Below, piece by piece: positions 3,299 to 63,925 of a stretch of DNA of 64,000 bases (the stretch's first letter is position 1; each line of letters begins with the position of its first letter). The stretch spans positions 1 to 64,000 of the IMG/VR virus record IMGVR_UViG_3300045020_000158. One strand, 5' to 3'. The notes below the pieces were generated by a model. The model made no database searches and was not told the origin of the DNA. It was given only the letters and a program-made list of their open reading frames with translations. The translations under genes were made by a program, and so were the position numbers. Source of the stretch: a virus. Taxonomy: Duplodnaviria; Heunggongvirae; Uroviricota; Caudoviricetes.

Positions 3299-3498
3299 TT
3301 GAATATGTCGTTGCCGATGGTATAGACCTCGAAGCCGAATTCACAGAAGGGGCAGGCGACCGAGCCGGCCTTGATGGCTTTCTCGCGGCGGTCGCGAAGG
3401 AGTTCCTCGATGGTCATTGCGGCTCTACCCGACACAATAACAATCGCAGTTCCAGTTTCGAATTCTCGTCGATCATATCGGGCAGCACCTCCATGCAA
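3238..3498 (-). CDS. small zinc-ribbon protein
   Basis: CPFCEF...CAVCGEHPIC motif with four Cys; overlaps the downstream ORF start, so its boundaries are uncertain. Confidence 0.3.
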   Translation of the reverse strand: MHGGAARYDRREFETGTAIVIVSGRAAMTIEELLRDRREKAIKAGSVACPFCEFGFEVYTIGNDIFKCAVCGEHPICPTPQPNTST

Positions 3499-3731
3499 AG
3501 AAGCGTCCGCAAACCAAGGCTCGCCAACTTCATGATTTCTTCCTGCGCCACTTTCACCTTTTCGCTTTCAATCTGCTCGCGCTCGAAATATTTCGTCGAT
3601 TCGGCGAAGGATCTGGAAGCGGCTGCCTTTTCCAGGAGGCGATAGACTTCGCCATCGTGCGCGGCGCGAACATCTGCGGTCTTGAGTTTCAGGCTGACAT
3701 GGGCGATGCAGCCGTCGGAAATATTAGTCAT
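3414..3731 (-). CDS. hypothetical protein
   Basis: 105-aa ORF; 4-nt start/stop overlap with the upstream GroES-like gene (translational coupling). Confidence 0.3.
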   Translation of the reverse strand: MTNISDGCIAHVSLKLKTADVRAAHDGEVYRLLEKAAASRSFAESTKYFEREQIESEKVKVAQEEIMKLASLGLRTLLCMEVLPDMIDENSKLELRLLLCRVEPQ

Positions 3732-20122: not shown

Positions 20123-20350
20123 TCACCGTTTTTTTCCTGTTTTGAGCCGGAATAACTCCCAGAATGCAGCGCGCATCGGAGTCACGTCGAGTTCGAAGTC
20201 CTGCCAAGTACGATAGGAGACACCGATCAGCTCAGCCGCTTCCTTGCGACTGAGACGAGCTTTGAGTCGGCACTCCCTGATCTGAGCGCCGCTCGGTTTA
20301 GCTGACGAACGCACTGATGGCCTGAGGGAGGGACGCGTCCATGCCCACAA
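20123..20350 (-). CDS. small HTH-like protein
   Basis: ECRLKARLSRKEAAELIGVSYRTWQDFE resembles an XRE-type HTH; overlaps the 3' end of rsr. Confidence 0.4.
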   Translation of the reverse strand: MWAWTRPSLRPSVRSSAKPSGAQIRECRLKARLSRKEAAELIGVSYRTWQDFELDVTPMRAAFWELFRLKTGKKR

Positions 20351-21950
20351 AATTCATACACTGCTCGTCACTCGGATCGATCAGACTCGACTCCGTTGCC
20401 GTGAACGCCACGAATCCCAACTTAAGCGGCCCGACTTCCTTTCGGTAGCCGGCCAGCTCGACCGCTGCATGCGTCGGACCGCGCCACGTCTCGTTATCCG
20501 TAAATGCCAACACTGCGTCAGCGGGCGTCTTCGTGGTCCGTGCCCAGCGCACTGGAATCGCACAATCCGTACCACCGCCATTGTTGATAGCGGTCTTGCG
20601 CAGCACGTCATTGAGCGAGTCCTTCGCCGTGATCTTCAGATCCACCAACCCCTGGTGGAAACCGAACGTGTAGCACTGCGGCTCCGTGCGCACAACGATC
20701 ATGGCAAACGCCGCGGCGGCCTCGCAGACGCGGATATTGGAGCCGTCAACGGTGGAAGACATGCTGCCCGAAACGTCGATGCCGATGATGAACCGCTTGC
20801 CGGTGGGCGCCACATTGTGGAACGACAGGTCGAATGCCCCATCCAACGCCGCCACAATCTGCGGCACTACGGTCCAGGTGCCCGAACCCCGGAAGCCATG
20901 ACCGGCCGCGTAGGTGCGCGAAGCCAGCAATACCGCCCAGGGATGCACGCGTGCTTTGCGGATAGCCTCGCCGTCGCTCAACTGACGTTCCACATACTTC
21001 GCCGCCGTAGAAAATACGGTCATCAGGCCGCACTTGGACAGGTTGCCCAGATTGCGGATCAGCGCGGTGTATTTGAGATTCGGCAGCAACGCCTCCCAGA
21101 CCACACCGTGATTCAGGAGCTCGGTCGGCACGAACTCGCGCTCGAGGCGGTGATCCGAAATGATCTTCGCTGCATCTGCGGGGTTCAGGCCGGTCGTCCG
21201 CAGCTTCAGCCATCCATCAATGAACGGCGCAATTTCCCGCACCCCATTCCAGCCGGTCGCGATCATCTGCCGATCGGTCGTGGTCTTGCGGGTCCGCGGC
21301 AGCTGCCGCTCACCACCGGCTTCCGGTGCGCAGATAGCATCCAACACGAGCCGCGTATGGCCGTCATCGGTTGCCGGATGCGCCAGGCGCAATACATCCC
21401 GGTGCGAGATGCCGCCGCGCTGGCCGTACTTGATCGCCTGGTAAGCGATCTCGGAGGCTTTGCGCTGTGTATACCATCGCGAGATGGCCGTGCGCACGCC
21501 GCGGCCCCAGCCGCCTCCGAGGGCCTCACGGTAGGCCACGAAGGTGAACAGATGCGTACCGATGCGGCAGATCTGCGGCAATGCCGCGAAGGCTGCTTTG
21601 CGGGTCGGCTCATCGCCTTTCACGGACGCCAGTGCCAGCACGAAAATGGCCGGATCATTCTTCGGCGCCAATCCCTTGTCGGAAGTCTCGGCGGCTTCGC
21701 GCACGACGCGCGGGCCGTCGATCTTCAGCAGGTTCAGGACGACTTCAGCGTTTTCGAGAGTGAGCTGCTTTTCGGAAGCATAGTACGTTCCCTGACTCGC
21801 ACCGAGCAGCAAAAATCGCTTGAGCCGATCCCAGTCGTTGAGTTCGTAAACGTAGCCTCCGGCTGCGTTCTGGATCATGGGCTCGCGAGGGAGTGGTTGA
21901 GTCTGCGGAATATTCTGCGCAGAGAGGTGACGTGCGTAGTTCGTAGTCAT
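20298..21950 (-). CDS. rsr: Ro60-like ribonucleoprotein Rsr (TROVE domain plus vWA/MIDAS)
   Basis: N-terminal TROVE-like region (YELNDWDRLKRFLLLGASQGTYYASEKQLTLENAEVVLNLLK). C-terminal vWA with MIDAS DxSGS (FIIGIDVSGSMSS); 550 aa. Confidence 0.85.
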   Translation of the reverse strand: MTTNYARHLSAQNIPQTQPLPREPMIQNAAGGYVYELNDWDRLKRFLLLGASQGTYYASEKQLTLENAEVVLNLLKIDGPRVVREAAETSDKGLAPKNDPAIFVLALASVKGDEPTRKAAFAALPQICRIGTHLFTFVAYREALGGGWGRGVRTAISRWYTQRKASEIAYQAIKYGQRGGISHRDVLRLAHPATDDGHTRLVLDAICAPEAGGERQLPRTRKTTTDRQMIATGWNGVREIAPFIDGWLKLRTTGLNPADAAKIISDHRLEREFVPTELLNHGVVWEALLPNLKYTALIRNLGNLSKCGLMTVFSTAAKYVERQLSDGEAIRKARVHPWAVLLASRTYAAGHGFRGSGTWTVVPQIVAALDGAFDLSFHNVAPTGKRFIIGIDVSGSMSSTVDGSNIRVCEAAAAFAMIVVRTEPQCYTFGFHQGLVDLKITAKDSLNDVLRKTAINNGGGTDCAIPVRWARTTKTPADAVLAFTDNETWRGPTHAAVELAGYRKEVGPLKLGFVAFTATESSLIDPSDEQCMNFVGMDASLPQAISAFVS

Positions 21951-33101: not shown

Positions 33102-33341
33102 GTGACCGATCGAAAATTGTCTGTCGGCATGGTTCACGAAATTCGCACGCGTCGGTTCACGGATTCTTATTGGGCACGGTGCCTTAAAGTAACCAATGGA
33201 ACAGTGCGGCGCGCGCGGACGGGCGAAACCTATGCGGATCATCCGACGTCTGCGGATAGGGCTCCGCGCGATGGCACCGGCCGCGGCAACAACCGCATCG
33301 CCAAGGCCGCCCGCGTGCGCAGGAGTTATTTCCGTGAGTAA
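33102..33341 (+). CDS. small HTH-like protein
   Basis: 79 aa; basic, with a possible HTH (CLKVTNGTVRRART). Confidence 0.3.
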   Translation: MTDRKLSVGMVHEIRTRRFTDSYWARCLKVTNGTVRRARTGETYADHPTSADRAPRDGTGRGNNRIAKAARVRRSYFRE

Positions 33342-33472
33342 CAAGTTGGCCGCGCAGATCTACGGCGTACTGCGCAGGGCGGCCGAACGGTATGACGCCG
33401 AGAAACTTGATGCGTGCGCGGCTTACGCGCGCGAGTTAGCACACAAACTTTTCACTGACGGGGAATCATTCA

Positions 33473-33886
33473 ATGAGCAGATTTATCAAAATCTCGTCCA
33501 CCGGCGAGCGCCTTCCAGGCGACGCGTTAGATTGGGTCGCGGTATTGGACGAAAAGCAAGGCTTGATGTGGGCCAAGAATCACATTGCGGTCGACAACTA
33601 CAAAGAGGCGACTTCGGCTCTTGACGGGTTTGAGCTGGCGGCCGCGAAGGACTGGCGACTGCCTACAGTCGAGGAGTTATTTCTTCTCGTCGATCGGACT
33701 CGGACCGGCCCTGCAATCGACGTTGCGTATTTCCCGGACTGTGCATCGGACTGGTACTGGAGCAGCACGCTTTATTCCGCGTCCCCTGGCGATTACGCCT
33801 GGGGCGTCGACTTCAACGTCGGCTACGCCGGCTGGGGCAGCCAGTACGGCAGCGGGTTCGTCCGCGCGTGCCGCGCCGGTCAGTAA
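33473..33886 (+). CDS. DGR target protein 1 (DUF1566 / Lcl C-terminal domain) carrying VR1
   Basis: DWRLPTVEELFLL...YWSST...GFVRACRAGQ fits DUF1566. The C-terminal 34 codons are the variable repeat. Confidence 0.8.
   Translation: MSRFIKISSTGERLPGDALDWVAVLDEKQGLMWAKNHIAVDNYKEATSALDGFELAAAKDWRLPTVEELFLLVDRTRTGPAIDVAYFPDCASDWYWSSTLYSASPGDYAWGVDFNVGYAGWGSQYGSGFVRACRAGQ
33779..33880 (+). repeat. DGR variable repeat VR1
   Basis: 102 nt aligned to the TR. About 14 mismatches, all at TR adenines (AAC codons to GGC/GAC/GTC/TAC/AGC). Identical GC-rich 3' end gggttcgtccgcgcgtgccgcgccggt. Confidence 0.8.
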
Positions 33887-33918
33887 TTCGGTCATTGGTC
33901 TTTTCATCAGGAACCAAC

Positions 33919-34461
33919 ATGGAATCAATCAGTAACGAATTGCGCAGCGTAATTGAGCGACGCCTCCGCGCAGCATCGCCGCGCGAGGTGCTCACGATAG
34001 CCAGTGCCCTTTGCGCTGACGAGCCCGTGCGCGGCACGGCTTGCGTTTTCGGTGAAGCGTCGAAGCCCGCGCGATTCGAGCTACGTGGCGATCTCGTCAT
34101 AGACCACCGCACGGGATTGATGTGGACGCGCGAGAACGTCCCCGGTGGGCGAATGGATTGGGCAGCGGCAAAGAAAGCGGCCGCGGGGGTTGCTTATGGT
34201 GGTCATACGGACTGGCGTCTGCCGACGGTTCGTGAACTCCTGACCATCGTCGACTACGAGCGTCATCAGCCATCGATCAATACTGATGTCTTCAAATGCG
34301 AAGCATCCTGGTATTGGACCTCAACCCCACTCGTCTCGTCCCCTGGCGATTGCGCCTGGTGCGTCGGCTTCAGCAACGGCGACGCCTACTGGGACGGCCA
34401 GTACAGCAGCGGGTTCGTCCGCGCGTGCCGCGCCGGTCAGTCTGTTGAGAATTGGTTCTGA
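33919..34461 (+). CDS. DGR target protein 2 (DUF1566) carrying VR2
   Basis: Start MESISNEL. DWRLPTVRELLTIVD...WYWTST...GFVRACRAGQ. VR2 lies 7 codons before the stop. Confidence 0.75.
   Translation: MESISNELRSVIERRLRAASPREVLTIASALCADEPVRGTACVFGEASKPARFELRGDLVIDHRTGLMWTRENVPGGRMDWAAAKKAAAGVAYGGHTDWRLPTVRELLTIVDYERHQPSINTDVFKCEASWYWTSTPLVSSPGDCAWCVGFSNGDAYWDGQYSSGFVRACRAGQSVENWF
34337..34437 (+). repeat. DGR variable repeat VR2
   Basis: Aligned to the TR with about 13 substitutions, all at TR adenines. Same conserved 3' end as VR1. Confidence 0.8.
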
Positions 34462-34471
34462 GGTCTGACCC

Positions 34472-34900
34472 ATGCGCGGACTCCCAACGATAGTAAAGCA
34501 GGCCGAGCGACTGATGGCGGATATCGAGATCGCCGTCTCTCGCTTCCCGCGCCGGCATCGCTATACAGTTGGGGCTCGCCTGAGCAGTTTCTCGATGGAG
34601 GTCGCCTATTCAGCCCATCAGGCGTGGCGCATACAGGTTTCCCAGACGTTACAAGCATTGGACGAGTCCATCGATCGCCTGAAGCTGCAACTGCAATTGG
34701 CGCAGCAGATTCACGCCTTCGCCAGTTTTGAGCAGTTCGAATTCTTGGCTCGGGCTGCAAATGATCTCGGCAGGCAGTGTGGAGGATGGCAGAAGAAACG
34801 GAATTCCAAGCGGCAGAATGAGCAGGAAGCACAGGCCCCTCCAGCACAGCGTCCGCAGATACTGAGTTCCCATGGCGCCTCAAGCGAGGCAAACACATGA
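34472..34900 (+). CDS. avd: DGR accessory variability determinant (Avd-like four-helix-bundle protein)
   Basis: 142-aa helical basic protein (MRGLPTIVKQAERLMADIEIAVSRFPRRHRYTVGARL...) placed between the targets and the TR/RT. ATGA-coupled to the RT ORF. Confidence 0.7.
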   Translation: MRGLPTIVKQAERLMADIEIAVSRFPRRHRYTVGARLSSFSMEVAYSAHQAWRIQVSQTLQALDESIDRLKLQLQLAQQIHAFASFEQFEFLARAANDLGRQCGGWQKKRNSKRQNEQEAQAPPAQRPQILSSHGASSEANT

Positions 34901-36198
34901 CGAAGCTGTGCTACCCCGTAGGATGTGCGGCTGGGTCCGAAGTACATGGGATAGGAGCGTCCCCTGGCGATTACGCCTGGAACGTCAACTTCAACAACGG
35001 CAACGCCAACTGGAACAACCAGAACAACAGCGGGTTCGTCCGCGCGTGCCGCGCCGGTGAGTGTCAGGATTCCGTACCTCTTCGCACCCTCTATGCTGCC
35101 TGGCGGGCAGCGCGCCGAGGCAAGAAGCCGAGCGCAAATCAGCTCGACTTTGATTCCCAGTGGATCGACGGACTGCTCGATCTACAGAAACGCCTAAATG
35201 CTGGTACGTGGTCGCCCGCTCCTGCGACTTGCTTTATCGCGAAACAGCCAAAGGCCCGCGAGATCCACGCGCCAGATTTCTTTGATCGCATCGTGCATCA
35301 CTGGCTCGTCCCGCAGCTTGAAACGATCTATGAACCGATTTTCATTCATGATGCGTATTCCAACCGGCGTGGGAAAGGCACCCACGCGGCGGTAGACCGG
35401 TTGCGAGATTTCGTGCATCAGGTCCACAACGGCCAAGGCGGCGGCTGGTATTTACAGCTCGATATTCGGAACTTCTTCAACTCGATACACCGGCCAACTC
35501 TCTATGAACTGTTGAAGGAGCGCATGAGTCGACACGGGGTTCCGCTGCCCGCGCGACGTGCCGTCCATGCGCTCCTTCGGCGCTCGACCGCTAACGGCGA
35601 AGTTATTTATCGCTGCAGTCCTGAAGAGCGCACGGCAGTACCCGCCTACAAGCGCCTGGAAAATGCAGTGCCCGGGTGTGGGATCGCGATCGGCAACCTG
35701 TCGAGCCAGTTCTTCGCCAACGTCTACATGAATGAGTTGGATCAGTTTGTGAAGCACGGACTCAAGGCACAGCGCTATATCCGCTATGTCGATGACTTCG
35801 TGCTGGTGCATGAGAGCCGCGCACAACTCATGGCGTGGAGGGAGCAGATCACATGCTTTCTGCGAGACCGGCTGCAGTTGGCATTGAAGCCGGATCAGCG
35901 TCTCGAGCAACTCACAAGCGGCATCGATTTCCTTGGCTACATTATCTTCCCCAGACATACGCTCGTCCGTCGCCGTGTCGTAATCCATGCCGGCGAGAAG
36001 CTCGACTCCTGGAAGCGATGCCATGTCCGCCACGGTCGTGTCAGTGCAAATCCATATGAGATTCAGCAGTTGCGTTCAATCTGCGCAAGCTATGCCGGGC
36101 ATTTCTCCCACGCCAACTCTTGGCGACTGCGCGCGAAATTTCGGCGCCGCTATCCGTGGCTAAAACAGGCCCTGCGCCTGCATGATCATTGCAAATAG
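34897..36198 (+). CDS. DGR reverse transcriptase (start uncertain; ORF includes TR)
   Basis: RT motifs: LYAAWRAARRGKK N-terminus, AIGNLSSQFFANVYMNELD (DGR-type SQ motif), YIRYVDDFVLV (YxDD). No in-frame ATG/GTG/TTG between the TR and the RT core. Confidence 0.85.
   Translation: MTKLCYPVGCAAGSEVHGIGASPGDYAWNVNFNNGNANWNNQNNSGFVRACRAGECQDSVPLRTLYAAWRAARRGKKPSANQLDFDSQWIDGLLDLQKRLNAGTWSPAPATCFIAKQPKAREIHAPDFFDRIVHHWLVPQLETIYEPIFIHDAYSNRRGKGTHAAVDRLRDFVHQVHNGQGGGWYLQLDIRNFFNSIHRPTLYELLKERMSRHGVPLPARRAVHALLRRSTANGEVIYRCSPEERTAVPAYKRLENAVPGCGIAIGNLSSQFFANVYMNELDQFVKHGLKAQRYIRYVDDFVLVHESRAQLMAWREQITCFLRDRLQLALKPDQRLEQLTSGIDFLGYIIFPRHTLVRRRVVIHAGEKLDSWKRCHVRHGRVSANPYEIQQLRSICASYAGHFSHANSWRLRAKFRRRYPWLKQALRLHDHCK
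34957..35058 (+). repeat. DGR template repeat (TR)
   Basis: AAC-rich segment (aacgtcaacttcaacaacggcaacgccaactggaacaaccagaacaacagc) homologous to VR1 and VR2. Lies inside the 5' end of the RT reading frame. Confidence 0.85.
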
Positions 36199-36526
36199 GA
36201 AAAACCCCATGATTGAAGCGCATTTGAAACTGCTGGGCACGGTGATGAAAGACCGGGTTACAGGCATCAAAGGTATGGTCGATTCGATTTCATTCGATGC
36301 TTACGGCTGCGTGCAGGCGTCACTGCGCCCGCCGGCTAACAAAGATGGCACGTTGGTGCAAGGGCATTGGTTCGATGTGAAGCGGCTGGAGGTGGCTGGC
36401 AAAAGAATCATGTCGGTACCGGCATTCGTCGAGCCAGGTAAAGAGATTGGCGCCGCTGACAAGCCGTGTCGGAGTGTGTGAGGCGATGTTGGCCGAACGT
36501 AACCACTTGAATAACAAAGGTACCTT

Positions 36527-48611: not shown

Positions 48612-48693
48612 TATAGCGATCGGGATCAAAGCCATTGCTCGCGCGGTATGGGCAGGCGGATCCGATTTTGGTATGTGATTGGAGGTGAATCGG

Positions 48694-48764
48694 TTCAGGG
48701 ACTAAGACTCGAACTTAGATCGTTGGCTCCAAAGACCAATGTCTTACCGTTAGACGATCCCTGA
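48694..48764 (-). tRNA. tRNA-Gln (anticodon TTG)
   Basis: 71-nt minus-strand cloverleaf: acceptor TCAGGGA/TCCCTGA (U1:A72 as in bacterial tRNA-Gln), D-arm GTCT-AACGGTA-AGAC, anticodon arm TTGGT-CTTTGGA-GCCAA (U33, UUG), T-arm CTAAG-TTCGAGT-CTTAG. Confidence 0.65.
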
Positions 48765-48773
48765 ATAGACTGT

Positions 48774-48845
48774 ATCTGGAGGTGTGGGTCGAACACACAT
48801 TGACGGAGTCAGGGTCCGTTATCCTACCGATTAGATGACTCCAGA
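48774..48845 (-). tRNA. tRNA-Gln-like (anticodon CTG; atypical C33)
   Basis: 72 nt: acceptor TCTGGAG/CTCCAGA, D-arm ATCT-AATCGGTA-GGAT, anticodon arm ACGGA-CCCTGAC-TCCGT, T-arm GTGTG-TTCGACC-CACAC. Position 33 is C rather than U. Confidence 0.45.
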
Positions 48846-49191
48846 GAATATGACGGCCAGTCAGTGGGTCGAACACTGCTCAGTGGATTTGGATTTCACG
48901 TTGCTCCCGGAGTCCCGGCCGAAAATGGCGGACAGCAGTCAACACGATTGACATGCCGCAAGCGACACGATCCGGCTTCCAACCGGTCCCAGCGCCCTGG
49001 CTGGTTTACTGTCCAAGATGGCGGAGAGGCAGCGAGTCGAACGCTCACAGCGAAAGCCGTGTCATGCCGGTGTTCAAGGCCGGTTGCCGTCCACACGGCG
49101 AGGCTCTCCAAGATGGCGGAAGGCGGAGTATCGAAACTCAGGAGCGCAAGCCCCTCATCTGTTTTCGAGGCAGCGACAGGCTACCTGCCTG

Positions 49192-52272: not shown

Positions 52273-54231
52273 TCATGCAAGCCGTCCTCCAAAACTCGTT
52301 CGCCACGAGGTGGCTGTGGCACCTGACAGGACAGACACTACCTTGGTTCCTCCGCTCACCTGGATATTCGGATAGGCCGTGTCATTTTTGTTCATGAATG
52401 CCCGCAAGGTCGCTGTCAACATGCCCCCGCTGCCGAAGACGTTGAATGGATTGAGATTGGCCAACTGATAACTCTGTACAGTCGTCACCAGAAAGGCCTG
52501 AGCGTTGGTGTGACTTGAAGTCAATCCACTCAATGTCAGAGTCACAGTGAATTCGTAGATGCCCGTGACAGGAGCCATAAAAACTCCGGTGGCCGCATTC
52601 ACTGCATTGGAAAAATCATGATCTTCGGTCACCGCCGCCGCATTCAGCGCATAGATCGTGCCATCTCCTGTGACACTAGACGCATTCGAGGTGAGCCCAC
52701 ACAGAAAATCAGCATTATCAGCACAGATTAGAGCTCCCAATGGGGCTCTGAGCATGTAACCAGCGGAATCCACGATCCCCGTGCCAAGAAGATCATAAAC
52801 ATATCCGGAATTTGGGTTGATGATCGCAGTTGATGCAGAACTGGCAGGAGCTTCCGAGGCTATAGTTACATGCCCTGCATTGCCATTCATGTTCAACATG
52901 CAGATCGCATAATTGGTATGCAAATGACAACCGATCATCTGCAGATTGAATGAATTGTTGAATACCCCGACGCCTGAAGTGGAATTCTCGAACCAGGTTC
53001 CGCTGAAATACAGATTCTGGATCGGCGTACCCGCCCCGGTTACAAAGTCTGTGCCATTGTCGTGGAAGACTCCTCCAAAAAATTTCCATTCACTGCCGTT
53101 GCCCTCAACCAGCAATCCCACAGTATTGGTAGAGATAGTACACGATCGTACCTGATAGCTCGCTCCATAGCCTCTCAATCCGTTTACGCATCCATAGATA
53201 TAGCAATTCTCAAAGATAGTATCATTGGCAAAAGGATGGGCGGGGCCTAATCGTGCGCCTCCCAGATAGATTCCATCTCCGATACCCGCGTTGATACAAC
53301 GAACTACTGCGCAATTGCGGAATACACTACGCCAACATCCAGAAGAACTGGTGTTAGAATCATTGAATACTTCTATTCCTGTAGTGGCGAGTGAATTGCC
53401 ATCGAAACAGATCGCATCGACCAACGTGTTAGAGAATGAGATGCCGGTAGCAGTATTGTTATTCGAATTTGAGAAGAGTGTTCCGCCAACTGCGCCAGTC
53501 CAGCGGAAGACCGTCCGCGGCAAGCCTAGAGGCGTAATTGATTCATCACTGGAGGCACCATTGATCTTACCTACCAGAGCTTGTCCGGCTGATTGCATGT
53601 ATATCGTGCTACTGATCTTGTATACTGCCTGACCGGGAAATCCATCGTAGACAAAGGGATTCGCGAGCAATGCGGCATTGATCGCTATCGTAGAATCATT
53701 GACACCGGTAGGATCAGCTCCATAGCGCAGGATATTTCCGGGTGCATATCCAAAGTTAGTTGGCGTTATTGAAGCCATTCTCTCAGCGGTTGTCTGCGTG
53801 TAATAGCCAATATTGCCGCTGACGGAATCGAGTACCGGAGCCGCGTTTGGACCTAAATATAGATTCGCCCATGAAAAAGAACTATTGCCCAATGTCCAAG
53901 TATTGGTGGGATTCGGGATCAATGAAGCACTGAAGGGCAATGCACCTAGACCACCTGGAATATTATCCACCGGATACCCAGGCATCGTATTGCCAAACTG
54001 ATCGGTCAGAACGAATTTGTAGGTCAGTGAAGGATTAAGCCAGAGGGCACATGTCCCGAAAGCTGTCAAAATAACCGGGTTTGTATTGGGCATATCACCC
54101 ATGCTATCAACGTAACTTGGAATTTTAGTCGAGGTTCCCGCTGCATATGTGTATAACTTGCCATAAGAAAGCGGCAAGCCATTCGGGTCCCAGGCACGGA
54201 AAATCGGAGATGGCGCGAGTTGTGTTGTCAT
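52273..54231 (-). CDS. tail fiber / tailspike (beta-helix-like)
   Basis: 652 aa. N-terminal about 95 aa are paralogous to the next gene. The C-terminal region is rich in short repeats of G, N, S and T, like right-handed beta-helix tailspikes. Confidence 0.6.
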   Translation of the reverse strand: MTTQLAPSPIFRAWDPNGLPLSYGKLYTYAAGTSTKIPSYVDSMGDMPNTNPVILTAFGTCALWLNPSLTYKFVLTDQFGNTMPGYPVDNIPGGLGALPFSASLIPNPTNTWTLGNSSFSWANLYLGPNAAPVLDSVSGNIGYYTQTTAERMASITPTNFGYAPGNILRYGADPTGVNDSTIAINAALLANPFVYDGFPGQAVYKISSTIYMQSAGQALVGKINGASSDESITPLGLPRTVFRWTGAVGGTLFSNSNNNTATGISFSNTLVDAICFDGNSLATTGIEVFNDSNTSSSGCWRSVFRNCAVVRCINAGIGDGIYLGGARLGPAHPFANDTIFENCYIYGCVNGLRGYGASYQVRSCTISTNTVGLLVEGNGSEWKFFGGVFHDNGTDFVTGAGTPIQNLYFSGTWFENSTSGVGVFNNSFNLQMIGCHLHTNYAICMLNMNGNAGHVTIASEAPASSASTAIINPNSGYVYDLLGTGIVDSAGYMLRAPLGALICADNADFLCGLTSNASSVTGDGTIYALNAAAVTEDHDFSNAVNAATGVFMAPVTGIYEFTVTLTLSGLTSSHTNAQAFLVTTVQSYQLANLNPFNVFGSGGMLTATLRAFMNKNDTAYPNIQVSGGTKVVSVLSGATATSWRTSFGGRLA

Positions 54232-54234
54232 GTG

Positions 54235-56151
54235 TCAACTGTATTGAAACACAACGAATCCCGGACCCTGACCGCCAGAACCGGCCGCAATGCCTTCACC
54301 TCTGCCTCCATTGGCACCTCCATAGTTGATCCCAGATACGCCTACGCCGCCTTGGCCACCCGTGCCGCCTCCTGAAAATGGCAGCCCGGTGTTTCCGGCG
54401 TTTCCAGTGGTATTGATCGTTCCACCCGTTGCGGCGCCTCCTGCGCCTCCTGCACCTGGAGAAGCGGCCGATGTCGCGTTGCTTCCCGCCAAGCCGCCAT
54501 TGGCCGTAAGTGTAGTCAGTGAAAAAGTTCCAGAACTGACCGAACTGGGATTGCCATTCAAACTGAAAACTCCTGCGGCTCCTACAGTATATTGGATCGT
54601 GTTGCCATCTTGACCGGCGACTGACACATTGGTGCGCGTGTAGCCTCCGGAACCGCCGCCACCACCACCCGCGGTATTGCCACCCGTATTGGTAAACTTC
54701 TCCCCTCCTCCCGCGGGTGAGCCTCCTACTTCGATCAGACAATTCGTATAACCCGAAGGAATTGTCTCAAAGGTGGTCGTTGGCGTGGTATAAATCCGTG
54801 TCAGTGTGCCTGTTGCGTTCTTCTGCGCCAGGAGATTGGCCGTCAGATACGAACCGGCCCGCAATGTCGTATTGCTCGCGGTGCTGGTAGCCTGCGCCCA
54901 TTGCAGTCCGAATGTGCCCGCAGTGGTGAGCAGCAGACTTCCCTTGTACACAACCCCGTTGCCGTTGGTTGCGGTCGATACTGAAGAATAGGAAATCGTG
55001 TTGCCGACAAAGGACTCGAGCTTTGGACCATATGCCGCGCTATTGATTGCACCCGTTGCGACTGAAGGTGACATACCGCGCGAATCGACTGCCGTACCCA
55101 TCGATTGAAATTTGAAACCGGCGCCTGCAGTCGCGGAATCCAGCAGCATGAAAAGCTCATATTCATATTGGCCAGTCAGTAGCGTGAGTTGCAGATCCGG
55201 ATCGGCCGTCAGTGTGGAATTGGAGACGATGGCCGTGTCGGTCGCCTTGATCGCGACAGTACCAGCGCTCGCAGCCACGGAAGCGTATTGATAAAACAGG
55301 ACACGCCAATCGCCATTCCCCATGTATTCGGCGATGAAGGCATCATTGGCACTGGTCGTGACGTTGTTGCCGCCTGGGAGAATCAAAGCCGCAGAATACG
55401 TCAGTGTGCAGGTGCCGGTGAAACGGCCGATGTAGATCGGCGCGACGAGCTGCGCAGAAGTGCCGAAGGAGGAAATCGTCGCGTTACCAACAATGCTCAC
55501 GTTGTGGCCGCTGACGCTGCCGAGATCGGCTGTGGCCGCAGCGGTCAGGGGTTGTTCGGTGCCGAATGTTCCAATGTTGACCCCGACACCCGAACCGCCA
55601 TAAAGCTGCCAGATGCCGTTCAGATAAATTGTTGAAACAAATTGGCCGGCGATGATCTGGTTGGCGCCCAGTTCGGTGCCATTTGGATTCAGAATCGGTT
55701 GCGGACCTGCACCATTTGCATTGAGTGTGCTTGGACCGGTATTGCTGTTCGAAGGGACCCAAAAGATGATAGTCCCATCGGTATCTGTTGGAAGTGGAGA
55801 ATCGAATGTTACGATATAGGAATTTACTGAACCTGTATCTATTCCTGCATAAATGCTGAGCAAAGCAGCATCAATGATTTGATCGACGGGATATCCTGGA
55901 AGTTGATTTCCATTTTGGTCGAAAACTGAAAATTTCAACCCGACGTTCGGCGGAATAAAGATAGACGCACTGCCATATGCATCCAAGATGATTGGATTGG
56001 AATTTTCAGTAACGCCACTCGAATCAGTATAGGTTGGCGCAGGAGTTGTTGAACCAGCCTCATACGTATAAACCTTGCCATAACTGAGAAACTGCCCATT
56101 CGGCGCAAAAAATTGCTGGCGTGTGAAGGGCGCCAGATAAGTAGCGGTCAC
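54235..56151 (-). CDS. tail fiber with glycine-rich C-terminus
   Basis: N-terminus (LSYGKVYTYEAGSTTPAPTYTDSSG...LPGYPVDQI) matches the 52273-54231 N-terminus. The C-terminal 150 aa are Gly-rich (GGGGGSGGY...GAGGAGGAATGG...GGGTGGQGG). Confidence 0.6.
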   Translation of the reverse strand: MTATYLAPFTRQQFFAPNGQFLSYGKVYTYEAGSTTPAPTYTDSSGVTENSNPIILDAYGSASIFIPPNVGLKFSVFDQNGNQLPGYPVDQIIDAALLSIYAGIDTGSVNSYIVTFDSPLPTDTDGTIIFWVPSNSNTGPSTLNANGAGPQPILNPNGTELGANQIIAGQFVSTIYLNGIWQLYGGSGVGVNIGTFGTEQPLTAAATADLGSVSGHNVSIVGNATISSFGTSAQLVAPIYIGRFTGTCTLTYSAALILPGGNNVTTSANDAFIAEYMGNGDWRVLFYQYASVAASAGTVAIKATDTAIVSNSTLTADPDLQLTLLTGQYEYELFMLLDSATAGAGFKFQSMGTAVDSRGMSPSVATGAINSAAYGPKLESFVGNTISYSSVSTATNGNGVVYKGSLLLTTAGTFGLQWAQATSTASNTTLRAGSYLTANLLAQKNATGTLTRIYTTPTTTFETIPSGYTNCLIEVGGSPAGGGEKFTNTGGNTAGGGGGGSGGYTRTNVSVAGQDGNTIQYTVGAAGVFSLNGNPSSVSSGTFSLTTLTANGGLAGSNATSAASPGAGGAGGAATGGTINTTGNAGNTGLPFSGGGTGGQGGVGVSGINYGGANGGRGEGIAAGSGGQGPGFVVFQYS

Positions 56152-56458
56152 GTTGCGACTACCTGATTATTGTCGCATTTGCAATTGCCCACAATTGCGT
56201 TATACTGCGCGAACGTTAATTCGGAGAAAATGCGATGTGGCATATCATTGGATGCATCGTTGCGGCGATCGTGATATTCGACGCATGGTTCATATTTTGC
56301 CGTCTCTGGACTACACGCCATCTGACTGAGAGATAACGAGGAAACGATCATGGTTTGGCTTTTCATCTTGGGCATCATTTCGCTTGCCGTATACAACCGG
56401 GGATTCCGCAAAATTCTGCTATGGGGAAGTCCGGTTTGGCTCATCATCGCCCTATCGT

Positions 56459-58513
56459 TCATGGGTTAGGGATTACGCTGGAGAGCGCGGATTGTCCTGA
56501 TGGAACGCCAGCAGGCGTTGGTGCAGTCTGACTGGGTCTCAGTACCTTCAATCCACCATAAGGATCTAAGAATTCCTTAGTGGCTTTCGCGGCGGCACGT
56601 TTATCCAACTGTCCACGAACCCAGGTTCCCAACACAGGAACACCGACTTTAGCGCCCGCGGCATTGACTGCCACTTCGCCACCGGTTTTCGCTGCCTGCG
56701 CCAAAGCGCTGACTGTCGTGTTGGAGTTGTTGACAAAGGCACCCTTCGGCTGAATCTGCTGATAACCCGCGACGCGTCCCAGAGTTTCCAAATGCTCTGT
56801 TGTTTGCGGGTCAAATAAAGATGGCATTTTTGGCGACATTGCATTGAGCTGCTTATTCAATGCTGACTGACTGACATTCCCAGTGGTGCCTAAAGAAGCA
56901 CGCCGAAGCTGATCCAAAGCTGCAACCCCCATGGTCTGGGCCGCGACTGGATTATCTGCAAGATTGGCACGCATTGTCGCTACGCCATCTCGTGTCGCAG
57001 TCGGACCCGTCACATATTTCTGAGTGAAACGATCCGGTGGCGTCAACCCATTGACAGCATCATTGTAAGCAGGATCGGCTTCCAGAGCTTGAAAATGGGC
57101 TCTCGCCAACGCGCGCGCCTGGTCGAATGGCTCTTTGAATTCCCGCGCCCAGGGCAATAAATCAGAATCTTCTACGACACTACGGATCTGATTCGCAGCA
57201 AAGCGCGTGCTCCCATCATTGGATCGGGCCAGTTCTGCCAGTCGAGAACGCAGTCCCTCGAATTGTCCCGCAGTAATGTCTTTCCCGCTGGTAACAATAT
57301 TCTGCAATCGCCGCATGATATCCGGCGGAGCGCTTTCGGTTGCCCATTTATCTTCCAGGCGCGCATTCACGTTATCCAAAAGAGATTGAGCGCTCACGAC
57401 GGGAGTAGTCGAAGGAATGGCATCCCGAGCCGTGCTGTACGCTTGATCGATAGCCGCTCGTGCTACTTTATCTTTCGCCTGATAGGCATCGATCAATGTA
57501 TCGCCATGTTCTACGGGATTCGTCGAAAACACATCCGGGCCGACGCGCTCACGCAAAGCATCGAAATTGTCGATGAGATTCTGATTCTGATCGTTATAGA
57601 GCTGTGCACGCTTTCCATCGGTGCCGCGCAAATTCTGCTCTTCCGAAATCAGACTCGGATCGCCCGAAGATTGTCCTGGAGTCAATCGCGCCTTGACCGG
57701 CAAGCTCTCTGCATCCTGAATGCGTTCGGCCGCAGTCGGATTGATCGCACCGCCAGTCTGCTGGGCCGCCTTTCGGATACCTTCCTGAAATTCTGGACTC
57801 GCGTTCGTGATCGGCGCCGTTTTAGCAGCACCCATAGACTGTTGAGAATTATTCACGCCAGAGGCAGCAGCAGATCCTTCCGCAGCAACAGCTTCCGGAT
57901 CATCCATGCTATTGACGATTCTTCGGCCGATGCCTGCAATATCTGCACCTCGTGCGACAGGCAGCAATTTGATCGCATCCCCAGCTATATCTGCAACTCG
58001 AGGCCCCGCTATGCCAGAAACGGCCTGGTGAAGTTTATCAGCAGCCCAAGTAATCGGGCTCGTCAGTGTTCTCAATCCTTCCAAATAGGGTTGCGCCTCT
58101 GGACCTCCACGGTAATTCAATATCGGATCTTGCGAAATCTGGGTTTCGAGTTGGGCTCGGCTGCCATCGGAATCGGGCAGAATGTCATTGGCAGCATGCG
58201 TCATACCTCGCAGAACACCCGCACCGGTCGCTAATGTGGCTTCACCTAGACCTGTGAACGAACCGCCGCCATTGCCGGTTGAAAATCCTTCGCCCTTGAA
58301 CTGTTTGAAGTTCGCCAATTCAGTGGGCGACGGATCGCGGCCGACACGTTTGCGAAACAAATCGGCGTCGTATACGGTGGAATCGTTGTCGTCTTTATGT
58401 TCGGGTTGGGTTAAATATGCACCAGGATCAAATGCGGGTTCAGCATTCGATTGATTTGTAACAGGCTCATCATTCGTCTGAGTTAGATAAGCTCCGGGAT
58501 CAAAATCCGTCAT
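56459..58513 (-). CDS. large virion-associated protein (unknown function)
   Basis: 684 aa; N-terminal duplicated motif FDPGAYLTQ; position inside the structural block. Confidence 0.45.
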   Translation of the reverse strand: MTDFDPGAYLTQTNDEPVTNQSNAEPAFDPGAYLTQPEHKDDNDSTVYDADLFRKRVGRDPSPTELANFKQFKGEGFSTGNGGGSFTGLGEATLATGAGVLRGMTHAANDILPDSDGSRAQLETQISQDPILNYRGGPEAQPYLEGLRTLTSPITWAADKLHQAVSGIAGPRVADIAGDAIKLLPVARGADIAGIGRRIVNSMDDPEAVAAEGSAAASGVNNSQQSMGAAKTAPITNASPEFQEGIRKAAQQTGGAINPTAAERIQDAESLPVKARLTPGQSSGDPSLISEEQNLRGTDGKRAQLYNDQNQNLIDNFDALRERVGPDVFSTNPVEHGDTLIDAYQAKDKVARAAIDQAYSTARDAIPSTTPVVSAQSLLDNVNARLEDKWATESAPPDIMRRLQNIVTSGKDITAGQFEGLRSRLAELARSNDGSTRFAANQIRSVVEDSDLLPWAREFKEPFDQARALARAHFQALEADPAYNDAVNGLTPPDRFTQKYVTGPTATRDGVATMRANLADNPVAAQTMGVAALDQLRRASLGTTGNVSQSALNKQLNAMSPKMPSLFDPQTTEHLETLGRVAGYQQIQPKGAFVNNSNTTVSALAQAAKTGGEVAVNAAGAKVGVPVLGTWVRGQLDKRAAAKATKEFLDPYGGLKVLRPSQTAPTPAGVPSGQSALSSVIPNP

Positions 58514-60036
58514 TGCCCACGACTCTCGAATTCTTTAATTTTCTGCCAAGTAGGAATCATTTGTTCCTTAGTAAGTCCATGCCTCTTGAGAAACTCATCC
58601 GCTTCCTTCGGATTGCGCGCAAGGCCATACTCATAACCCTCGATCAAATTCGGAATGTTGCGGAAGTCGCTCTCGTTCTTTGCCAATAGGCCCGGGTCCT
58701 GCGTCTTGGATTGCACGCCCGCGTAGGCGGCAAGGGCTTTTTCCGTCGCCAGCGATTGGGTCACGACTCCTTTCAATGCCTTGTTGTCGAGCGACACATT
58801 CGGGCTGCCATTATGAGCCAGTTCACGGGCGGCATCAGTGCCTCCGAGACCCGCCTGGGTAGCTCGAGCCGCCTCGTACCGCGCCAGATTCTTGGCCAGC
58901 GTATTGGCGTCATCCGCGCCCTTGGTATCAATGCCAGCGCTCGACAGAAAGTTCATGATGGCTTTCTTGTTCTCGAAACCCGCCCCGGTATCGGGACCTT
59001 CCGGGTTGTCAAGAATTGCACGTGCTCGGCTCAGAGCATCCTGTGCCTGAGAAGTGTTGTTCGCTGCCGCCTGGGCCTGTGAGACACGCTCGGTGACACC
59101 TTTGGCAAGCCCCTGCTGCGTTTCGACCTGAGCGCGCGTGGGGTTGAGATTCGGCATAGGCTGAGACGTTGGGGGAGGGACCACTGCGGCAGTTGGCGCT
59201 GAAGTACCCTGGGGAGGCAGAGACAGCGCGCCCGTCGCCGGATTGCGATTGCCAATCTGGCCTGTGGGAAGCGCAATGGGCTCTGGGGCTTTCTTAATGG
59301 GCGTCCCAGCGGCCGTGAAACCGCCGCCGGCGGCGGCAGGAGCCTGAACGCCGGGCTGAATGATGCCCCCATTGTCAACCGTTGTCGGCGTCCCATAGGT
59401 CTGCTCACGCTGTTTGGCCGCATCCAGCGCCTGCAGCTGCCAATTGCTCAGCATTTCAGGCAGTTTGGCCGTTTTGCCGCCGGCTACCAGATTCTGCACC
59501 AGTGGCTTATAAACAGACGCCACGCGCTCCGCATCCGGACCGCCGGATTGAGAAAATTCGTCAATCGCATCGAGAACCTTGCCGGCGCCCTGCGCAGTGC
59601 CTTGCTTCACATCCGGATCATTCGAAAGACCGCCGACGTTGTCGTAAAACTGCTGGCGCAAAGTTCCATTCAGCCCAGCCAGCTTCGTTTTCGCGTCCAA
59701 TTGCGCGTTCTTCATGTCAATCAGGCTTTTCGCAATCACGGGATACGCATCCCCAGTTGCCTTCAGTTGCGGATTGGTCAATGCCTGGTCGAGGTCCAGT
59801 GTGCCGTCCTCTCCGACATGCGCACCCACATCGTAATTCTGAAAGAAATTCGCCGCCGCCTGGCGTTGCCGAGCGTCCTGTTGATTCTGTTGCAGCAGAG
59901 CTTGGGCATTCTGCTGGTTGATAGCGCCGGTCTGCAGATTCTGCTGGGCCTGGCGAAATCCAAGAATACTGGAGAGCTGTGAAAGTCCCTGATTGGGATT
60001 GGGTGGCTGAACCATCGCTCCCACAGGTTGAATCAT
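58510..60036 (-). CDS. large structural/internal virion protein
   Basis: 508 aa, Gln/Ala/Pro-rich, coupled to its neighbours. Confidence 0.4.
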   Translation of the reverse strand: MIQPVGAMVQPPNPNQGLSQLSSILGFRQAQQNLQTGAINQQNAQALLQQNQQDARQRQAAANFFQNYDVGAHVGEDGTLDLDQALTNPQLKATGDAYPVIAKSLIDMKNAQLDAKTKLAGLNGTLRQQFYDNVGGLSNDPDVKQGTAQGAGKVLDAIDEFSQSGGPDAERVASVYKPLVQNLVAGGKTAKLPEMLSNWQLQALDAAKQREQTYGTPTTVDNGGIIQPGVQAPAAAGGGFTAAGTPIKKAPEPIALPTGQIGNRNPATGALSLPPQGTSAPTAAVVPPPTSQPMPNLNPTRAQVETQQGLAKGVTERVSQAQAAANNTSQAQDALSRARAILDNPEGPDTGAGFENKKAIMNFLSSAGIDTKGADDANTLAKNLARYEAARATQAGLGGTDAARELAHNGSPNVSLDNKALKGVVTQSLATEKALAAYAGVQSKTQDPGLLAKNESDFRNIPNLIEGYEYGLARNPKEADEFLKRHGLTKEQMIPTWQKIKEFESRGQ

Positions 60037-61860: not shown

Positions 61861-62189
61861 GTCGGTACAAACACCATCGAGGGAGCGGCTGCGTACGTCA
61901 CTGTCAACTTGTCCCCCAGCGAAACCGGGAACGTTCCGGATGCCATTCCAGTTGAATATGTGCCACTCCTTGTAAATTGGATATCCGATACCGTGCCACC
62001 CGTGAGGATCACAAACCCCTTTTTGGATGCTTGATAAACGAAAGGCGATGCAGTTACTGTGATGACAGCCTCAGCCGATGGCGGTGTCCCGACATCCGTA
62101 TCATGCATCCACCGATACCAGCTCGCCGAGAGATTCAGTCCTTGGGTCAGCGGTTGCGTGTATGTCGGAAGGGCTCGAGGCGTGGTCAC
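61857..62189 (-). CDS. hypothetical small structural protein
   Basis: 110-aa ORF coupled to both neighbours. Confidence 0.3.
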   Translation of the reverse strand: MTTPRALPTYTQPLTQGLNLSASWYRWMHDTDVGTPPSAEAVITVTASPFVYQASKKGFVILTGGTVSDIQFTRSGTYSTGMASGTFPVSLGDKLTVTYAAAPSMVFVPT

Positions 62190-63925
62190 GTCGTTGCCGG
62201 CTCCATAAATGCCGTGGCACCGATAATGTCCCGTGGTACCGGATCAGTAAAGGAGGCCTCCCACACACGATCGCGGTCCTCTCCCAGCAGATACCAGATC
62301 GCCCGATTGCGGGTCTCGCCGGCCGCACCGATCGTCACCCATTGCTCGGTGGACCACGTGAAACCCCCGTCCGAGCTCCACCGCAACATGCATTGTGGAT
62401 TGGAACCCTGACCGGTTTGCAATCCCACACCGGGTGTGAATTCGATCTGGAGCTGCGAGAAGAAAACCCGGCCGCGGTTCTGTTTCTGCCAGACATGCGG
62501 CGTGCGGCGCAGTGCGCGCAGCGGATTACCGGCATCAGTGTAGAACTGTCGGCTCATCTGATAGAAATTGCCATTCTCATAATCGCCGACAATCCGCACG
62601 TCACCGAAATCCATGTAACAATTGCTTCTATGCCGGTGATAGACCGCCGCATTCGGGTCCCACGAGAGCCGCTTGTGCCACTGGCTCGTGACGGCGTCAT
62701 AGCACCAGGTAACATCTGCGGTCGGAAAGGTCAGCATGTAGAAGAGATGGCCTTCTTCTTCATAGGCATAGCCGATCGCATCATCAACCACCGGATACTG
62801 CGAAATCGCATGCTCAACGCCATGGTTGGAAATGCGCTGCCAACTATATTGAGCAGTCATCACCACCAGATTCTCACCCTGCTCATTTTTTGCAAGCCAT
62901 GCGAGTTGGGCGCCCATGCGCGTGATCGAATTCACCGCCGCACAGCCAATCTGAGGACCGACGCCCGGAATGCGCGAAAATGCGAAGTTGGTGAGTCCGG
63001 CGTTGTACCAGATCTCCATGGTGCGTTCGCCGATCAGAAACAGCTCACGGTTATTCTCAAAGAGCGTGATCAGATTATCTGTGCTCGAATCCTTGAGCGA
63101 ATAGAACGCACCCGGAAACAGAATCGAATAGGGCGTCGGACCAGTCGTGTAGAAAGTTCGGGTGCCGGGCTGGTTGAAAATCAGCCACCCTTCAATGAAG
63201 GCAATCCGTTGGGCACCCAGGAAGCCTGCGTCCGTGATCTGGCCGAACGGCGGAATCGTCAGCGTGATCGTCTCAGGCGAACTCGTCTGTGTCGCGTTCT
63301 GCGACATGGTGATCGTCAGGCCGATGGTATCGACCGAAAGAATCTGCGTGCCGGCCGGGATATAACCATCAGCATCTGACAGTGTCGGGGTCGATGCCAC
63401 GATCAGGCCGACTGGCAGATCGCCCGGCAATGTGATCGTCGGCGAATTGATCGTGACGGTGCCCTGGAACTGGTTGCTGTAAGTTGTGCCAGACAACAGG
63501 TAGTAATAACCGTAAGTGCCATCCACAATGATGGCGTAGCCGCCTTCACCGTTGACCAGCACGCCATTGTCGCGGATGCAGACCGGACCGGCATTCGTCA
63601 GCAACGTTCCGACCTGGGTCACGGAATATTGCGGGATGCTTGTCTGCGTCGCAGCGACCGTGATCTTGACCAGATAGACGACGTTGGAAACGACGATCAG
63701 TACCTGTTGGCCGCCGGGCAAAACCCATGCACCGCGGGCTTGGCCGGCGATGGTGGTCCAGAGAGTGTTGAGACCGGGGCAGCCGAGTAAGGCCAGTGGC
63801 TCTTTCGGACGTTCTTCGGGATCTCTTTCCAAATAAAAATTGATAGTGTCTTGAGCATCCTGCAAAACCATCGGGGCAACATAACTAGGGCCGCAAAAAC
63901 CAAAGTCAGTTCCACTAAACGCCAT
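62186..63925 (-). CDS. virion structural protein (unknown function)
   Basis: 579-aa ORF, beta-rich composition, inside the structural block. Confidence 0.45.
   Translation of the reverse strand: MAFSGTDFGFCGPSYVAPMVLQDAQDTINFYLERDPEERPKEPLALLGCPGLNTLWTTIAGQARGAWVLPGGQQVLIVVSNVVYLVKITVAATQTSIPQYSVTQVGTLLTNAGPVCIRDNGVLVNGEGGYAIIVDGTYGYYYLLSGTTYSNQFQGTVTINSPTITLPGDLPVGLIVASTPTLSDADGYIPAGTQILSVDTIGLTITMSQNATQTSSPETITLTIPPFGQITDAGFLGAQRIAFIEGWLIFNQPGTRTFYTTGPTPYSILFPGAFYSLKDSSTDNLITLFENNRELFLIGERTMEIWYNAGLTNFAFSRIPGVGPQIGCAAVNSITRMGAQLAWLAKNEQGENLVVMTAQYSWQRISNHGVEHAISQYPVVDDAIGYAYEEEGHLFYMLTFPTADVTWCYDAVTSQWHKRLSWDPNAAVYHRHRSNCYMDFGDVRIVGDYENGNFYQMSRQFYTDAGNPLRALRRTPHVWQKQNRGRVFFSQLQIEFTPGVGLQTGQGSNPQCMLRWSSDGGFTWSTEQWVTIGAAGETRNRAIWYLLGEDRDRVWEASFTDPVPRDIIGATAFMEPATT

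Follow-up and report, generated by a model that had tools for sequence, protein, structure and literature searches.

A phage diversity-generating retroelement with two DUF1566 targets and a template repeat inside the reverse transcriptase open reading frame

The mechanism of diversity-generating retroelements (DGRs) is known almost entirely from the DGR of Bordetella phage BPP-1, in which a long spacer located 3' of the template repeat (TR) serves priming, processivity and termination, the TR itself being assumed to be untranslated. This non-coding spacer of 144 nucleotides (nt), lying between the TR and the reverse transcriptase (RT) gene brt, holds an Avd-binding stem-loop, the priming A56, a thumb ring and a bRT-binding stem; moreover, complementary DNA (cDNA) synthesis in BPP-1 requires the upstream avd RNA. 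Stem-loops "just downstream of TR" have been reported for 207 of 278 Avd-type DGRs. As for the coding status of the repeat, it has been stated that the "TR is not translated in vivo" (Wu et al., 2018) and that it is "in most cases intergenic" (Roux preprint). Among the target classes defined to date, category "d" groups DUF1566/CLec2 proteins such as LdtA of Legionella pneumophila, about half of them being short and consisting of DUF1566 only (Wu et al., 2018). Cassettes with two targets make up about 13% of DGRs. Here we describe a DGR cassette at positions 33473-36198 of IMG/VR record IMGVR_UViG_3300045020_000158, of which positions 1 to 64,000 were analysed (hereafter the window, 64,000 nt in length). 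The window is part of a phage genome of the Caudoviricetes, with a large terminase, a primase and a head-closure protein among its genes, and its TR lies inside the open reading frame (ORF) of the RT.

By its repeats and gene content the cassette is a complete Avd-type DGR with two targets, avd, TR and RT, as a preliminary description of the same DNA had proposed. The genes follow one another on the + strand in the order target 1, target 2, avd, TR and RT (all cassette features given below are on this strand); Avd, a DGR-type RT and targets with a C-type lectin (CLec) fold are all present, all ORFs are intact and the catalytic YVDD is kept. The reading favoured here as a whole, which the sequence evidence makes probable, is that of a functional Avd-type phage DGR whose RT is translated through the TR and whose RNA is compacted, lacking the 3' spacer.

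The repeats were placed by an ungapped three-way alignment with registers at 33780 for the first variable repeat (VR1), 34337 for the second (VR2) and 34958 for the TR. The TR (34958-35058, with homology extending to 34957 and 35062) contains 24 adenines in 101 nt and 10 AAC codons, and the RT ORF reads it in the VR frame. VR1 (33780-33880, homology reaching 33779 and 33884) and VR2 (34337-34437) form the last 34 codons of target 1 and target 2, respectively. The limits first assigned to the three repeats (34957-35058, 33779-33880 and 34337-34437) are exact on this alignment, and the numbers of TR-VR differences, first estimated at about 14 and 13 and all on TR adenines, turned out to be precisely 14 for VR1 and 13 for VR2. 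All 27 mismatches fall on TR adenines, with no difference off adenine, and the 77 non-adenine positions are identical across TR, VR1 and VR2 (77/77); the probability that all mismatches would hit adenine sites by chance is about 4e-11 for VR1 and 3e-10 for VR2. Furthermore, in the reading frame of the targets each of the 24 TR adenines is a first or second codon base. The GC-rich 3' end, described earlier as resembling the initiation of mutagenic homing (IMH) sequence and as following each repeat, corresponds to a 27-nt block, gggttcgtccgcgcgtgccgcgccggt, identical in the three copies. Homology goes on for 4 nt beyond this block with a single non-adenine difference (G35059 in the TR, C in the VRs), which fits the expected distinction between IMH* in the TR and IMH in the VR. 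Directly 3' of VR2 there is an inverted repeat or hairpin (34435-34470, GGTCAG...CTGACC), in the same position as the IMH-adjacent hairpin in BPP-1. Searches of the 64-kb window with the TR (adenines replaced by N) and with the IMH core (up to 5 mismatches) returned the three known copies only, and no further VR.

An inverted partial copy of the GC-rich IMH segment was also observed at 33199-33221, about 250 nt upstream of target 1 and inside an ORF at 33102-33341. This 23-nt copy is 83% complementary to the segment (94% over a 16-nt core), as compared with 33859-33881, 34416-34438 and 35037-35052. It may be due to chance in GC-rich DNA, or it may represent a remnant or a target-related element.

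Upstream of their VRs the two targets share 46% nucleotide identity and 39% amino-acid identity. The identity of TR and VRs at 77 of 77 non-adenine positions, within paralogues as divergent as these, implies recent retrohoming into both genes, since only recent copying from the TR explains it. Further evidence comes from two pairs of closely related loci (93-97% identical), the members of each pair originating from different metagenome samples. In the pair L046/L089, which is 97% identical overall, the VRs differ at 16 sites, 15 of which are TR-adenine positions, and the 16th is a TR substitution that has been faithfully transferred to the matching VR. The pair L111/L113 displays the same pattern, with VR differences at TR-adenine sites and a TR substitution mirrored in the cognate VR. 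Read from their sequences, these pairs point to ongoing retrohoming of this clade in nature, and they provide the VR variability across related genomes whose absence had been named beforehand as a ground for rejecting the DGR interpretation. The opposite view, of an inactive remnant in which the VRs became fixed in the distant past, could appeal to the fact that this variation comes from relatives and not from the phage itself, as well as to VR1, which has no clear downstream hairpin. It is hardly credible in the face of intact ORFs, a preserved YVDD, the complete non-adenine identity within otherwise divergent paralogues and the continuing adenine-site variation and TR-to-VR transfer in close relatives.

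The gene preceding the TR, avd (34472-34900), encodes a protein of 142 amino acids (aa), and its TGA stop codon (34898-34900) overlaps the RT start. That this gene is Avd-like, as previously suggested, is borne out by its matches to PF22296 (bAvd; E 2e-11, 44.7 bits for a cut-off of 40) and to phrog_3206, annotated "Avd protein of DGR" (E 3e-19); the match to NCBIfam NF033474 (DivGenRetAVD; E 5e-16, 58.9 bits) lies under the equivalog cut-off of 80. A sequence search of the PDB with Avd gave no match. The RT domain matches PF00078 (RVT_1) and phrog_1423 (E 3e-93), and its best PDB match is Bordetella Brt (8ub7, E 3e-33), query residue 64, immediately 3' of the TR, being aligned with Brt residue 17. 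Both signature motifs reported at the outset were found, namely the DGR-type SQ motif, IGNLSSQ at 35689-35709 (consensus GIxIGxLxSQxxANxY; IGxxxSQ), and YVDD at 35785-35796; the RT segment GIAIGNLSSQFFANVY aligns with GIPIGSLTSQLFANVY of Brt. The Brt match, the SQ motif and phrog_1423 together identify the RT as one of the DGR type.

The most distinctive feature of the locus is the position of the TR with respect to the RT frame. The avd stop and the RT start codon at 34897 overlap as ATGA, and the RT ORF (34897-36198, 433 aa) comprises a leader (codons 1-20), the TR (codons 21-54), a linker (codons 55-57) and the RT fold, which begins at about codon 58 (35068). In this frame no ATG, GTG or TTG occurs between codon 1 and codon 133, and no near-cognate codon (CTG or ATN) between codons 19 and 90. 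This start-codon scan confirms the initial proposal of a TR lying in frame within an RT ORF coupled to avd through ATGA, with no alternative canonical start before the RT core. For the comparative analysis 197 related loci were fetched and submitted to a purpose-made TR/VR scan, and the 69 non-redundant loci with an RT at least 55% identical were kept. The TR lies within the RT open frame in all 69 of these relatives, which derive from Xanthomonadales genomes and from metagenomes, and the ATGA junction is found in 65 of 66 loci together with GAGG or GGGG at -8 to -11. Moreover, all of the 120 best protein homologues (61-83% identity) bear an N-terminal extension of the form MTKxxYPxGCAAGS...SPxDYAWNVNFNNGN...VRAVRxGEC. 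The layout breaks down below about 50% RT identity, where many DGRs have a stop between TR and RT and where BPP-1-like viral DGRs have 150-250 nt from the TR to the RT core.

A small subclade (L049; L051, which equals L001; P0120; and probably L057) is particularly informative in this respect. Its members have lost 1 nt ahead of the TR and gained 1 nt behind it, which restores the RT frame; the TR is read as TSTSTTAT... instead of NVNFNNGN..., and the ORF continues into an intact RT. These compensating indels indicate that selection keeps the frame open across the TR and does not act on the peptide. The same loci bear on the proposal that the long RT ORF is an annotation artefact, according to which the RT would start non-canonically or internally, at or after the TR 3' end, the TR would be non-coding and the frame would be open merely because the TR copies a coding VR. 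It is true that a TR, by the way it is built, contains no stop in the VR frame and that, in many relatives, GTG or TTG codons within its GC-rich 3' part are possible alternative starts; in addition, the untranslated status assigned to the TR (Wu et al., 2018) and the weak codon-position periodicity of the leader (0.75/0.85/1.08, as against 0.73/0.55/1.31 in the RT core) would agree with such a proposal. However, the window offers no canonical or near-cognate start between codons 19 and 90, the frame is open in 69 of 69 loci despite indels in the leader, the ATGA junction is conserved along with its Shine-Dalgarno (SD)-like motif, and the frame-shifted subclade holds the ORF open by paired indels with the TR in a different frame. 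Even the alternative starts fall inside the TR in 61 of the 69 loci; an in-frame start located 3' of the TR occurs in no more than eight, and in nine the stretch from the TR to the RT core is devoid of canonical starts. As to periodicity, its weakness in the leader is due to an RNA-level constraint overlapping the coding signal, and reliance was therefore placed on frame conservation and on the compensating frameshifts. On balance an artefact is improbable, and the frame conservation together with the structural model described below indicates that the RT starts at AUG 34897 and that translation of the TR yields part of a disordered N-terminal extension.

In the AlphaFold model of the RT, residues 1-55 are unstructured (predicted local distance difference test, pLDDT, 34-47) and residues 58-430 reach about 90 or more; the extension of about 55 residues is thus predicted to be a disordered passenger. 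A functional role of the TR-encoded peptide, be it as a mimic of the target C-terminus, as a regulatory tail or through a contact with Avd or RNA, would be in line with the reading of the TR in the VR frame by the RT ORF in 89 of 91 TR-VR pairs and with the conserved leader residues Y6, G9 and S14. Such a role is nevertheless very improbable, considering that the frame-shifted subclade encodes an unrelated Thr/Ser-rich peptide in front of an RT that is still intact, that the model shows no structure in this region, and that the conserved leader codons coincide with the pairings P1 and P3 described in the following paragraph, where synonymous change is suppressed. This coincidence, with few synonymous changes, points to a constraint at the RNA level.

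The RNA in question is a three-helix element at 34857-34962, which opens with the invariant ACUGAGU (34861-34867), encloses the avd stop, the SD-like sequence and the RT AUG, and abuts the TR. It was defined from a structure-agnostic MAFFT alignment of 56 members folded by RNAalifold. Helix P1 pairs 34869-34875 with 34944-34950, and P3 pairs 34905-34911 with 34925-34931; P2 (34877-34880 with 34887-34890) contains the SD-like GAGG (34886-34889), and its CCUC/GAGG pairing covaries with CCCC/GGGG. Compensatory changes are found at 14 of the 17 pairs. Pairing is preserved in 96% of cells, compared with 20-51% when the partners are slid, and double-sided changes number 119 as against 11-21; none of 500 shuffles reaches the observed values. 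The window's own sequence adopts the P1-P3 fold. A covariance model derived from this alignment finds exactly one such element per locus in 81 loci, always touching the TR, and these include about 25 non-training loci and five outgroups. No Rfam 15 family matched positions 33300-36300 on either strand at E<=1. Consistently with a structured RNA, synonymous sites are frozen in the leader (T2 is ACG in 63/65, R5 is CGC in 41/42, Q15 is CAA in 48/48 and I19 is ATA in 17/17), and the suppression of synonymous variation is confined to RT codons 2-53, with high values throughout from about codon 58 to the end of the ORF; the sequence flanking the RT on its 3' side shows no conservation.

The architecture of this element, with P2 pairing the SD-like GAGG and P1 enclosing both the AUG and the avd stop, is a classical one for coupled genes, and the structure might be only a translational-coupling or attenuator device setting the Avd:RT ratio, with no role in reverse transcription and with RT-Avd recognition located elsewhere or minimal. 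We regard this restricted function as rather unlikely. In two outgroups, L136 and L180, the avd gene is already closed 5' of the element, and other ORFs separate the element from an RT located 1.3 kb downstream; even so, it remains in contact with the TR. Its association is thus with the template instead of the RT start, which makes it a part of the template RNA and more than an appendage of that start. Furthermore, there is no other constrained RNA in or after the RT, the BPP-1 system needs upstream avd RNA for its cDNA synthesis, and the two roles are compatible. In the same outgroups the conserved ATG of the element opens a short ORF running through the TR, of 60 aa in L136 (1930-2112) and 54 aa in L180 (2515-2679). 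These short ORFs could be a relic of the fused layout, or translation across the TR could matter in itself. A different arrangement is seen in L135, a metagenome-assembled genome of Tepidiphilus: an ORF from the avd region (2794-3501) crosses the 5' element as well as the TR and overlaps the RT start (3498) as ATGA, so that in this locus the TR may be embedded in an upstream ORF and not in that of the RT.

On the 3' side of the TR the constrained sequence is very short. A non-coding spacer of the BPP-1 type, about 140 nt long, is not present; there is only a mini-hairpin of 17 nt at the TR boundary (35052-35068, CC(GG)UGA[GUG]UCAGG), in which the sequence pairs back onto the TR's final bases. 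This hairpin is predicted in about 40 of the 56 members and is weak in the window itself. The sole constrained nucleotides 3' of the TR are GGUGAGUGUCAGG (35056-35068), with the invariant GUGAG.U.UC; the hairpin includes GUGAGU.UCA (35057-35066), which does not vary within the clade. Beyond this boundary hairpin, no spacer-like element was found within or after the RT by RNAalifold over the 90 nt 3' of the TR, by folds of individual sequences or by a gene-wide synonymous scan. The constrained RNA is bracketed by two near-identical invariant heptamers, ACUGAGU (34861-34867) 5' of P1 and GUGAGUG (35057-35063) 3' of the TR. The heptamers are alike and not complementary, and no pairing partner was seen in an inspection by eye. 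They could be protein-recognition or boundary signals.

A working scheme can be built on these features. Mutagenic retrohoming is established for the DGR family and is extended to this element by analogy: the avd-TR-RT region would be transcribed, RT-Avd would reverse-transcribe the TR, misincorporating at adenines, and the resulting cDNA would replace the last 34 codons of both paralogous lectin-fold genes. A ribosome starting at AUG 34897 would translate the leader of 20 codons and the entire TR before it arrives at the RT fold, near codon 58. Coupling of RT synthesis to the translation of avd is probable, by reinitiation after the avd UGA, since a ribosome terminating at this codon would open P1 and P2. 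The P1-P3 element would probably act as an RT-Avd scaffold, as a stop for cDNA synthesis, or as both, and the mini-hairpin at the TR edge is a candidate fold-back or priming element, possibly a minimal counterpart of the duplex formed by TR and spacer (TR:Sp) as primer. The priming nucleotide is predicted within or adjoining GUGAGUGUCAGG (35057-35068). RT-Avd bound to the same RNA would presumably block its own translation, and one transcript would serve either as mRNA or as template; if translation and template use are mutually exclusive, feedback control would result. The complete proposal holds that the template RNA is the 5' coding region of the RT mRNA, that a 5' three-way junction and a minimal TR-edge hairpin replace the BPP-1 spacer as RT-Avd scaffold, cDNA stop and primer, and that each transcript is either translated or reverse-transcribed, because the same structure hides the RT ribosome-binding site. 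It is put forward as a tentative possibility. Were it true, it would amount to a built-in autoregulation of a hypermutation system.

Several points weigh against the favoured reading of a functional DGR with an RT translated through the TR. Besides the weak leader periodicity, the possible GTG or TTG starts in the TR 3' end of many relatives and the lack of a clear hairpin downstream of VR1, all mentioned above, the 5' element of the window folds no better than shuffles (z -1.2), and its support is accordingly comparative only. The conserved ATG is kept in L136 and L180 though no RT follows it, so that its invariance partly reflects the RNA element. Finally, the activity of the DGR of this particular phage is deduced from sequence.

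The two target genes deserve separate consideration. Target 1 (33473-33886) encodes a stand-alone Lcl_C/DUF1566 protein of 137 aa, with PF07603 at residues 24-134 (E 7e-25) and matches to phrog_16004 and phrog_4245, both of unknown function. Target 2 (33919-34461) encodes 180 aa and matches PF07603 (Lcl_C, formerly DUF1566) with E 2e-30. Both genes thus carry this domain and a VR, in agreement with the proposal of two adjacent DUF1566 targets served by one TR. The AlphaFold model of target 2 (pLDDT 88) consists of an N-terminal hairpin of two helices followed by a C-type-lectin-like domain, and its best fold match in the PDB is the C-terminal domain of Legionella Lcl (8q4e), followed by C-type lectin-like domains of snake-venom and natural killer (NK) cell proteins; a PDB search by sequence gave no match. 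Its full-length homologues measure 172-190 aa, and the homologues of the window's targets belong to the short DUF1566-only class. Domain matches and model concur in placing both VRs at the C-terminal 34 codons of proteins whose fold is that of a C-type lectin.

The preliminary description had also seen the targets as receptor-binding or adhesin proteins, and this part of it did not find support. Neither target, at 137 and 180 aa, has a tail-fibre or virion-attachment domain or a PHROG tail annotation, the only addition to the lectin domain being the two-helix N-terminus, and inspection revealed no signal peptide or anchor domain on either. The early-region location of the cassette, documented below, together with the absence of tail-fibre, signal-peptide and anchor domains, leaves the adhesin reading unsupported. 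Target 2 was also considered as a lipoprotein or signal-peptide protein on account of the stretch …LTIASALC…, a candidate dropped by inspection for its poor lipobox. Why a phage should diversify lectin-fold proteins that are small, look cytoplasmic and are encoded in its early region is a question that this locus raises.

As regards the genomic setting, the cassette is flanked on one side by a repressor-like helix-turn-helix (HTH) gene and RecT, and on the other by a DHH phosphoesterase, a MazG-like NTPase, a DNA methyltransferase and an HNH gene. By these neighbours it sits in the early/DNA-metabolism region of the phage and not in the tail module. The relatives have the targets, avd and TR/RT in common with the window, but none of the flanking genes, and the cassette can therefore be considered modular. 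In a megablast search against GenBank phages, 30-40 kb of the window gave no match, and the phage has no near kin among them. A 99-aa ORF (36182-36481; phrog_37639, function unknown) overlaps the 3' end of the RT by 17 nt; a homologue was found in 1 of 85 clade loci, and the gene probably belongs to the phage proper, not to the DGR as an accessory. Elsewhere in the window, on the - strand, there are a tRNA cluster at 48692-49109, with Gln(UUG), Gln(CUG) and Ser(UGA), and a 550-aa protein of the replication region (20298-21950) matching phrog_850, "RNA-binding protein" (E 2e-65). Four successive large ORFs at 52273-60036, on the same strand and of 652, 638, 684 and 508 aa, find no counterpart in PHROG at 1e-5. 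The head-closure gene (62186-63925) is close by, and they probably encode tail or structural proteins, the phage lineage being a poorly sampled one.

Among the known systems, the closest in sequence are chromosomal DGRs of Xanthomonadales/Lysobacterales and many soil and freshwater metagenome contigs, which fall in the same RT clade (55-83% identity) and share the ATGA junction, the leader, the TR within the RT ORF, the 5' RNA element and one or two DUF1566 targets, about half of the relatives having two VRs. The named hosts of the clade are Dokdonella, Dyella, Rhodanobacter, Lysobacter, Luteimonas, Stenotrophomonas and Xanthomonas, and also Nevskia and Marinobacter. These DGRs differ from that of the window in their genomic contexts, the window copy residing in a phage genome with its nearest RT relative at 83% identity; no isolate phage or plasmid in GenBank or PLSDB carries this clade. 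The clade is large and apparently active in soil and water Gammaproteobacteria and their phages, and if the picture drawn here holds, the RNA architecture of BPP-1 is not universal, and a much more compact unit, of about 215 nt, would lend itself to study or engineering. The questions that follow are where cDNA is primed and how translation and reverse transcription share one RNA. For annotation, DGR finders that expect intergenic TRs or trim RT starts will mis-describe such loci.

With category "d" of Wu et al. (2018) the window shares the location of the VR in a DUF1566/Lcl_C domain and the type B architecture (avd, TR, RT). LdtA, however, is a surface lipoprotein, whereas the targets of the window, on inspection, show neither lipobox nor signal peptide, and the RTs of Legionella plasmids match from residue 53 only (33% identity), without the TR-containing extension. 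A phage DGR with DUF1566 targets, even with two of them, is already a known kind. No explicit description of a TR within or overlapping the RT gene was found in the searchable full-text literature, although most papers in subscription journals fall outside that scope and a prior description is possible; to the same extent, the clade-wide TR within the RT ORF, the covariation-supported 5' RNA element at the avd/RT junction and the absence of a 3' spacer have not been described.

The likeness to BPP-1 is nonetheless extensive: both DGRs are phage-borne, with the order target-avd-TR-RT (mtd-avd-TR-brt), adenine-specific differences, a GC-rich IMH/IMH* pair, putative in the window, an accessory gene of the pentameric-Avd type, a CLec-fold VR at the target C-terminus and homologous RTs (E 3e-33), the RT identity to Brt being low, at about 30%. 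They differ in their targets, a single tail-fibre protein, Mtd, in BPP-1 and two small stand-alone proteins outside the tail module here, and above all in the organization of the template, since in the window about 10 nt separate the RT core from the TR, which is itself enclosed in the RT ORF, and the constrained RNA is 5' of the TR. These differences do not overturn the DGR paradigm, but they allow a direct test of how general the BPP-1 RNA model is.

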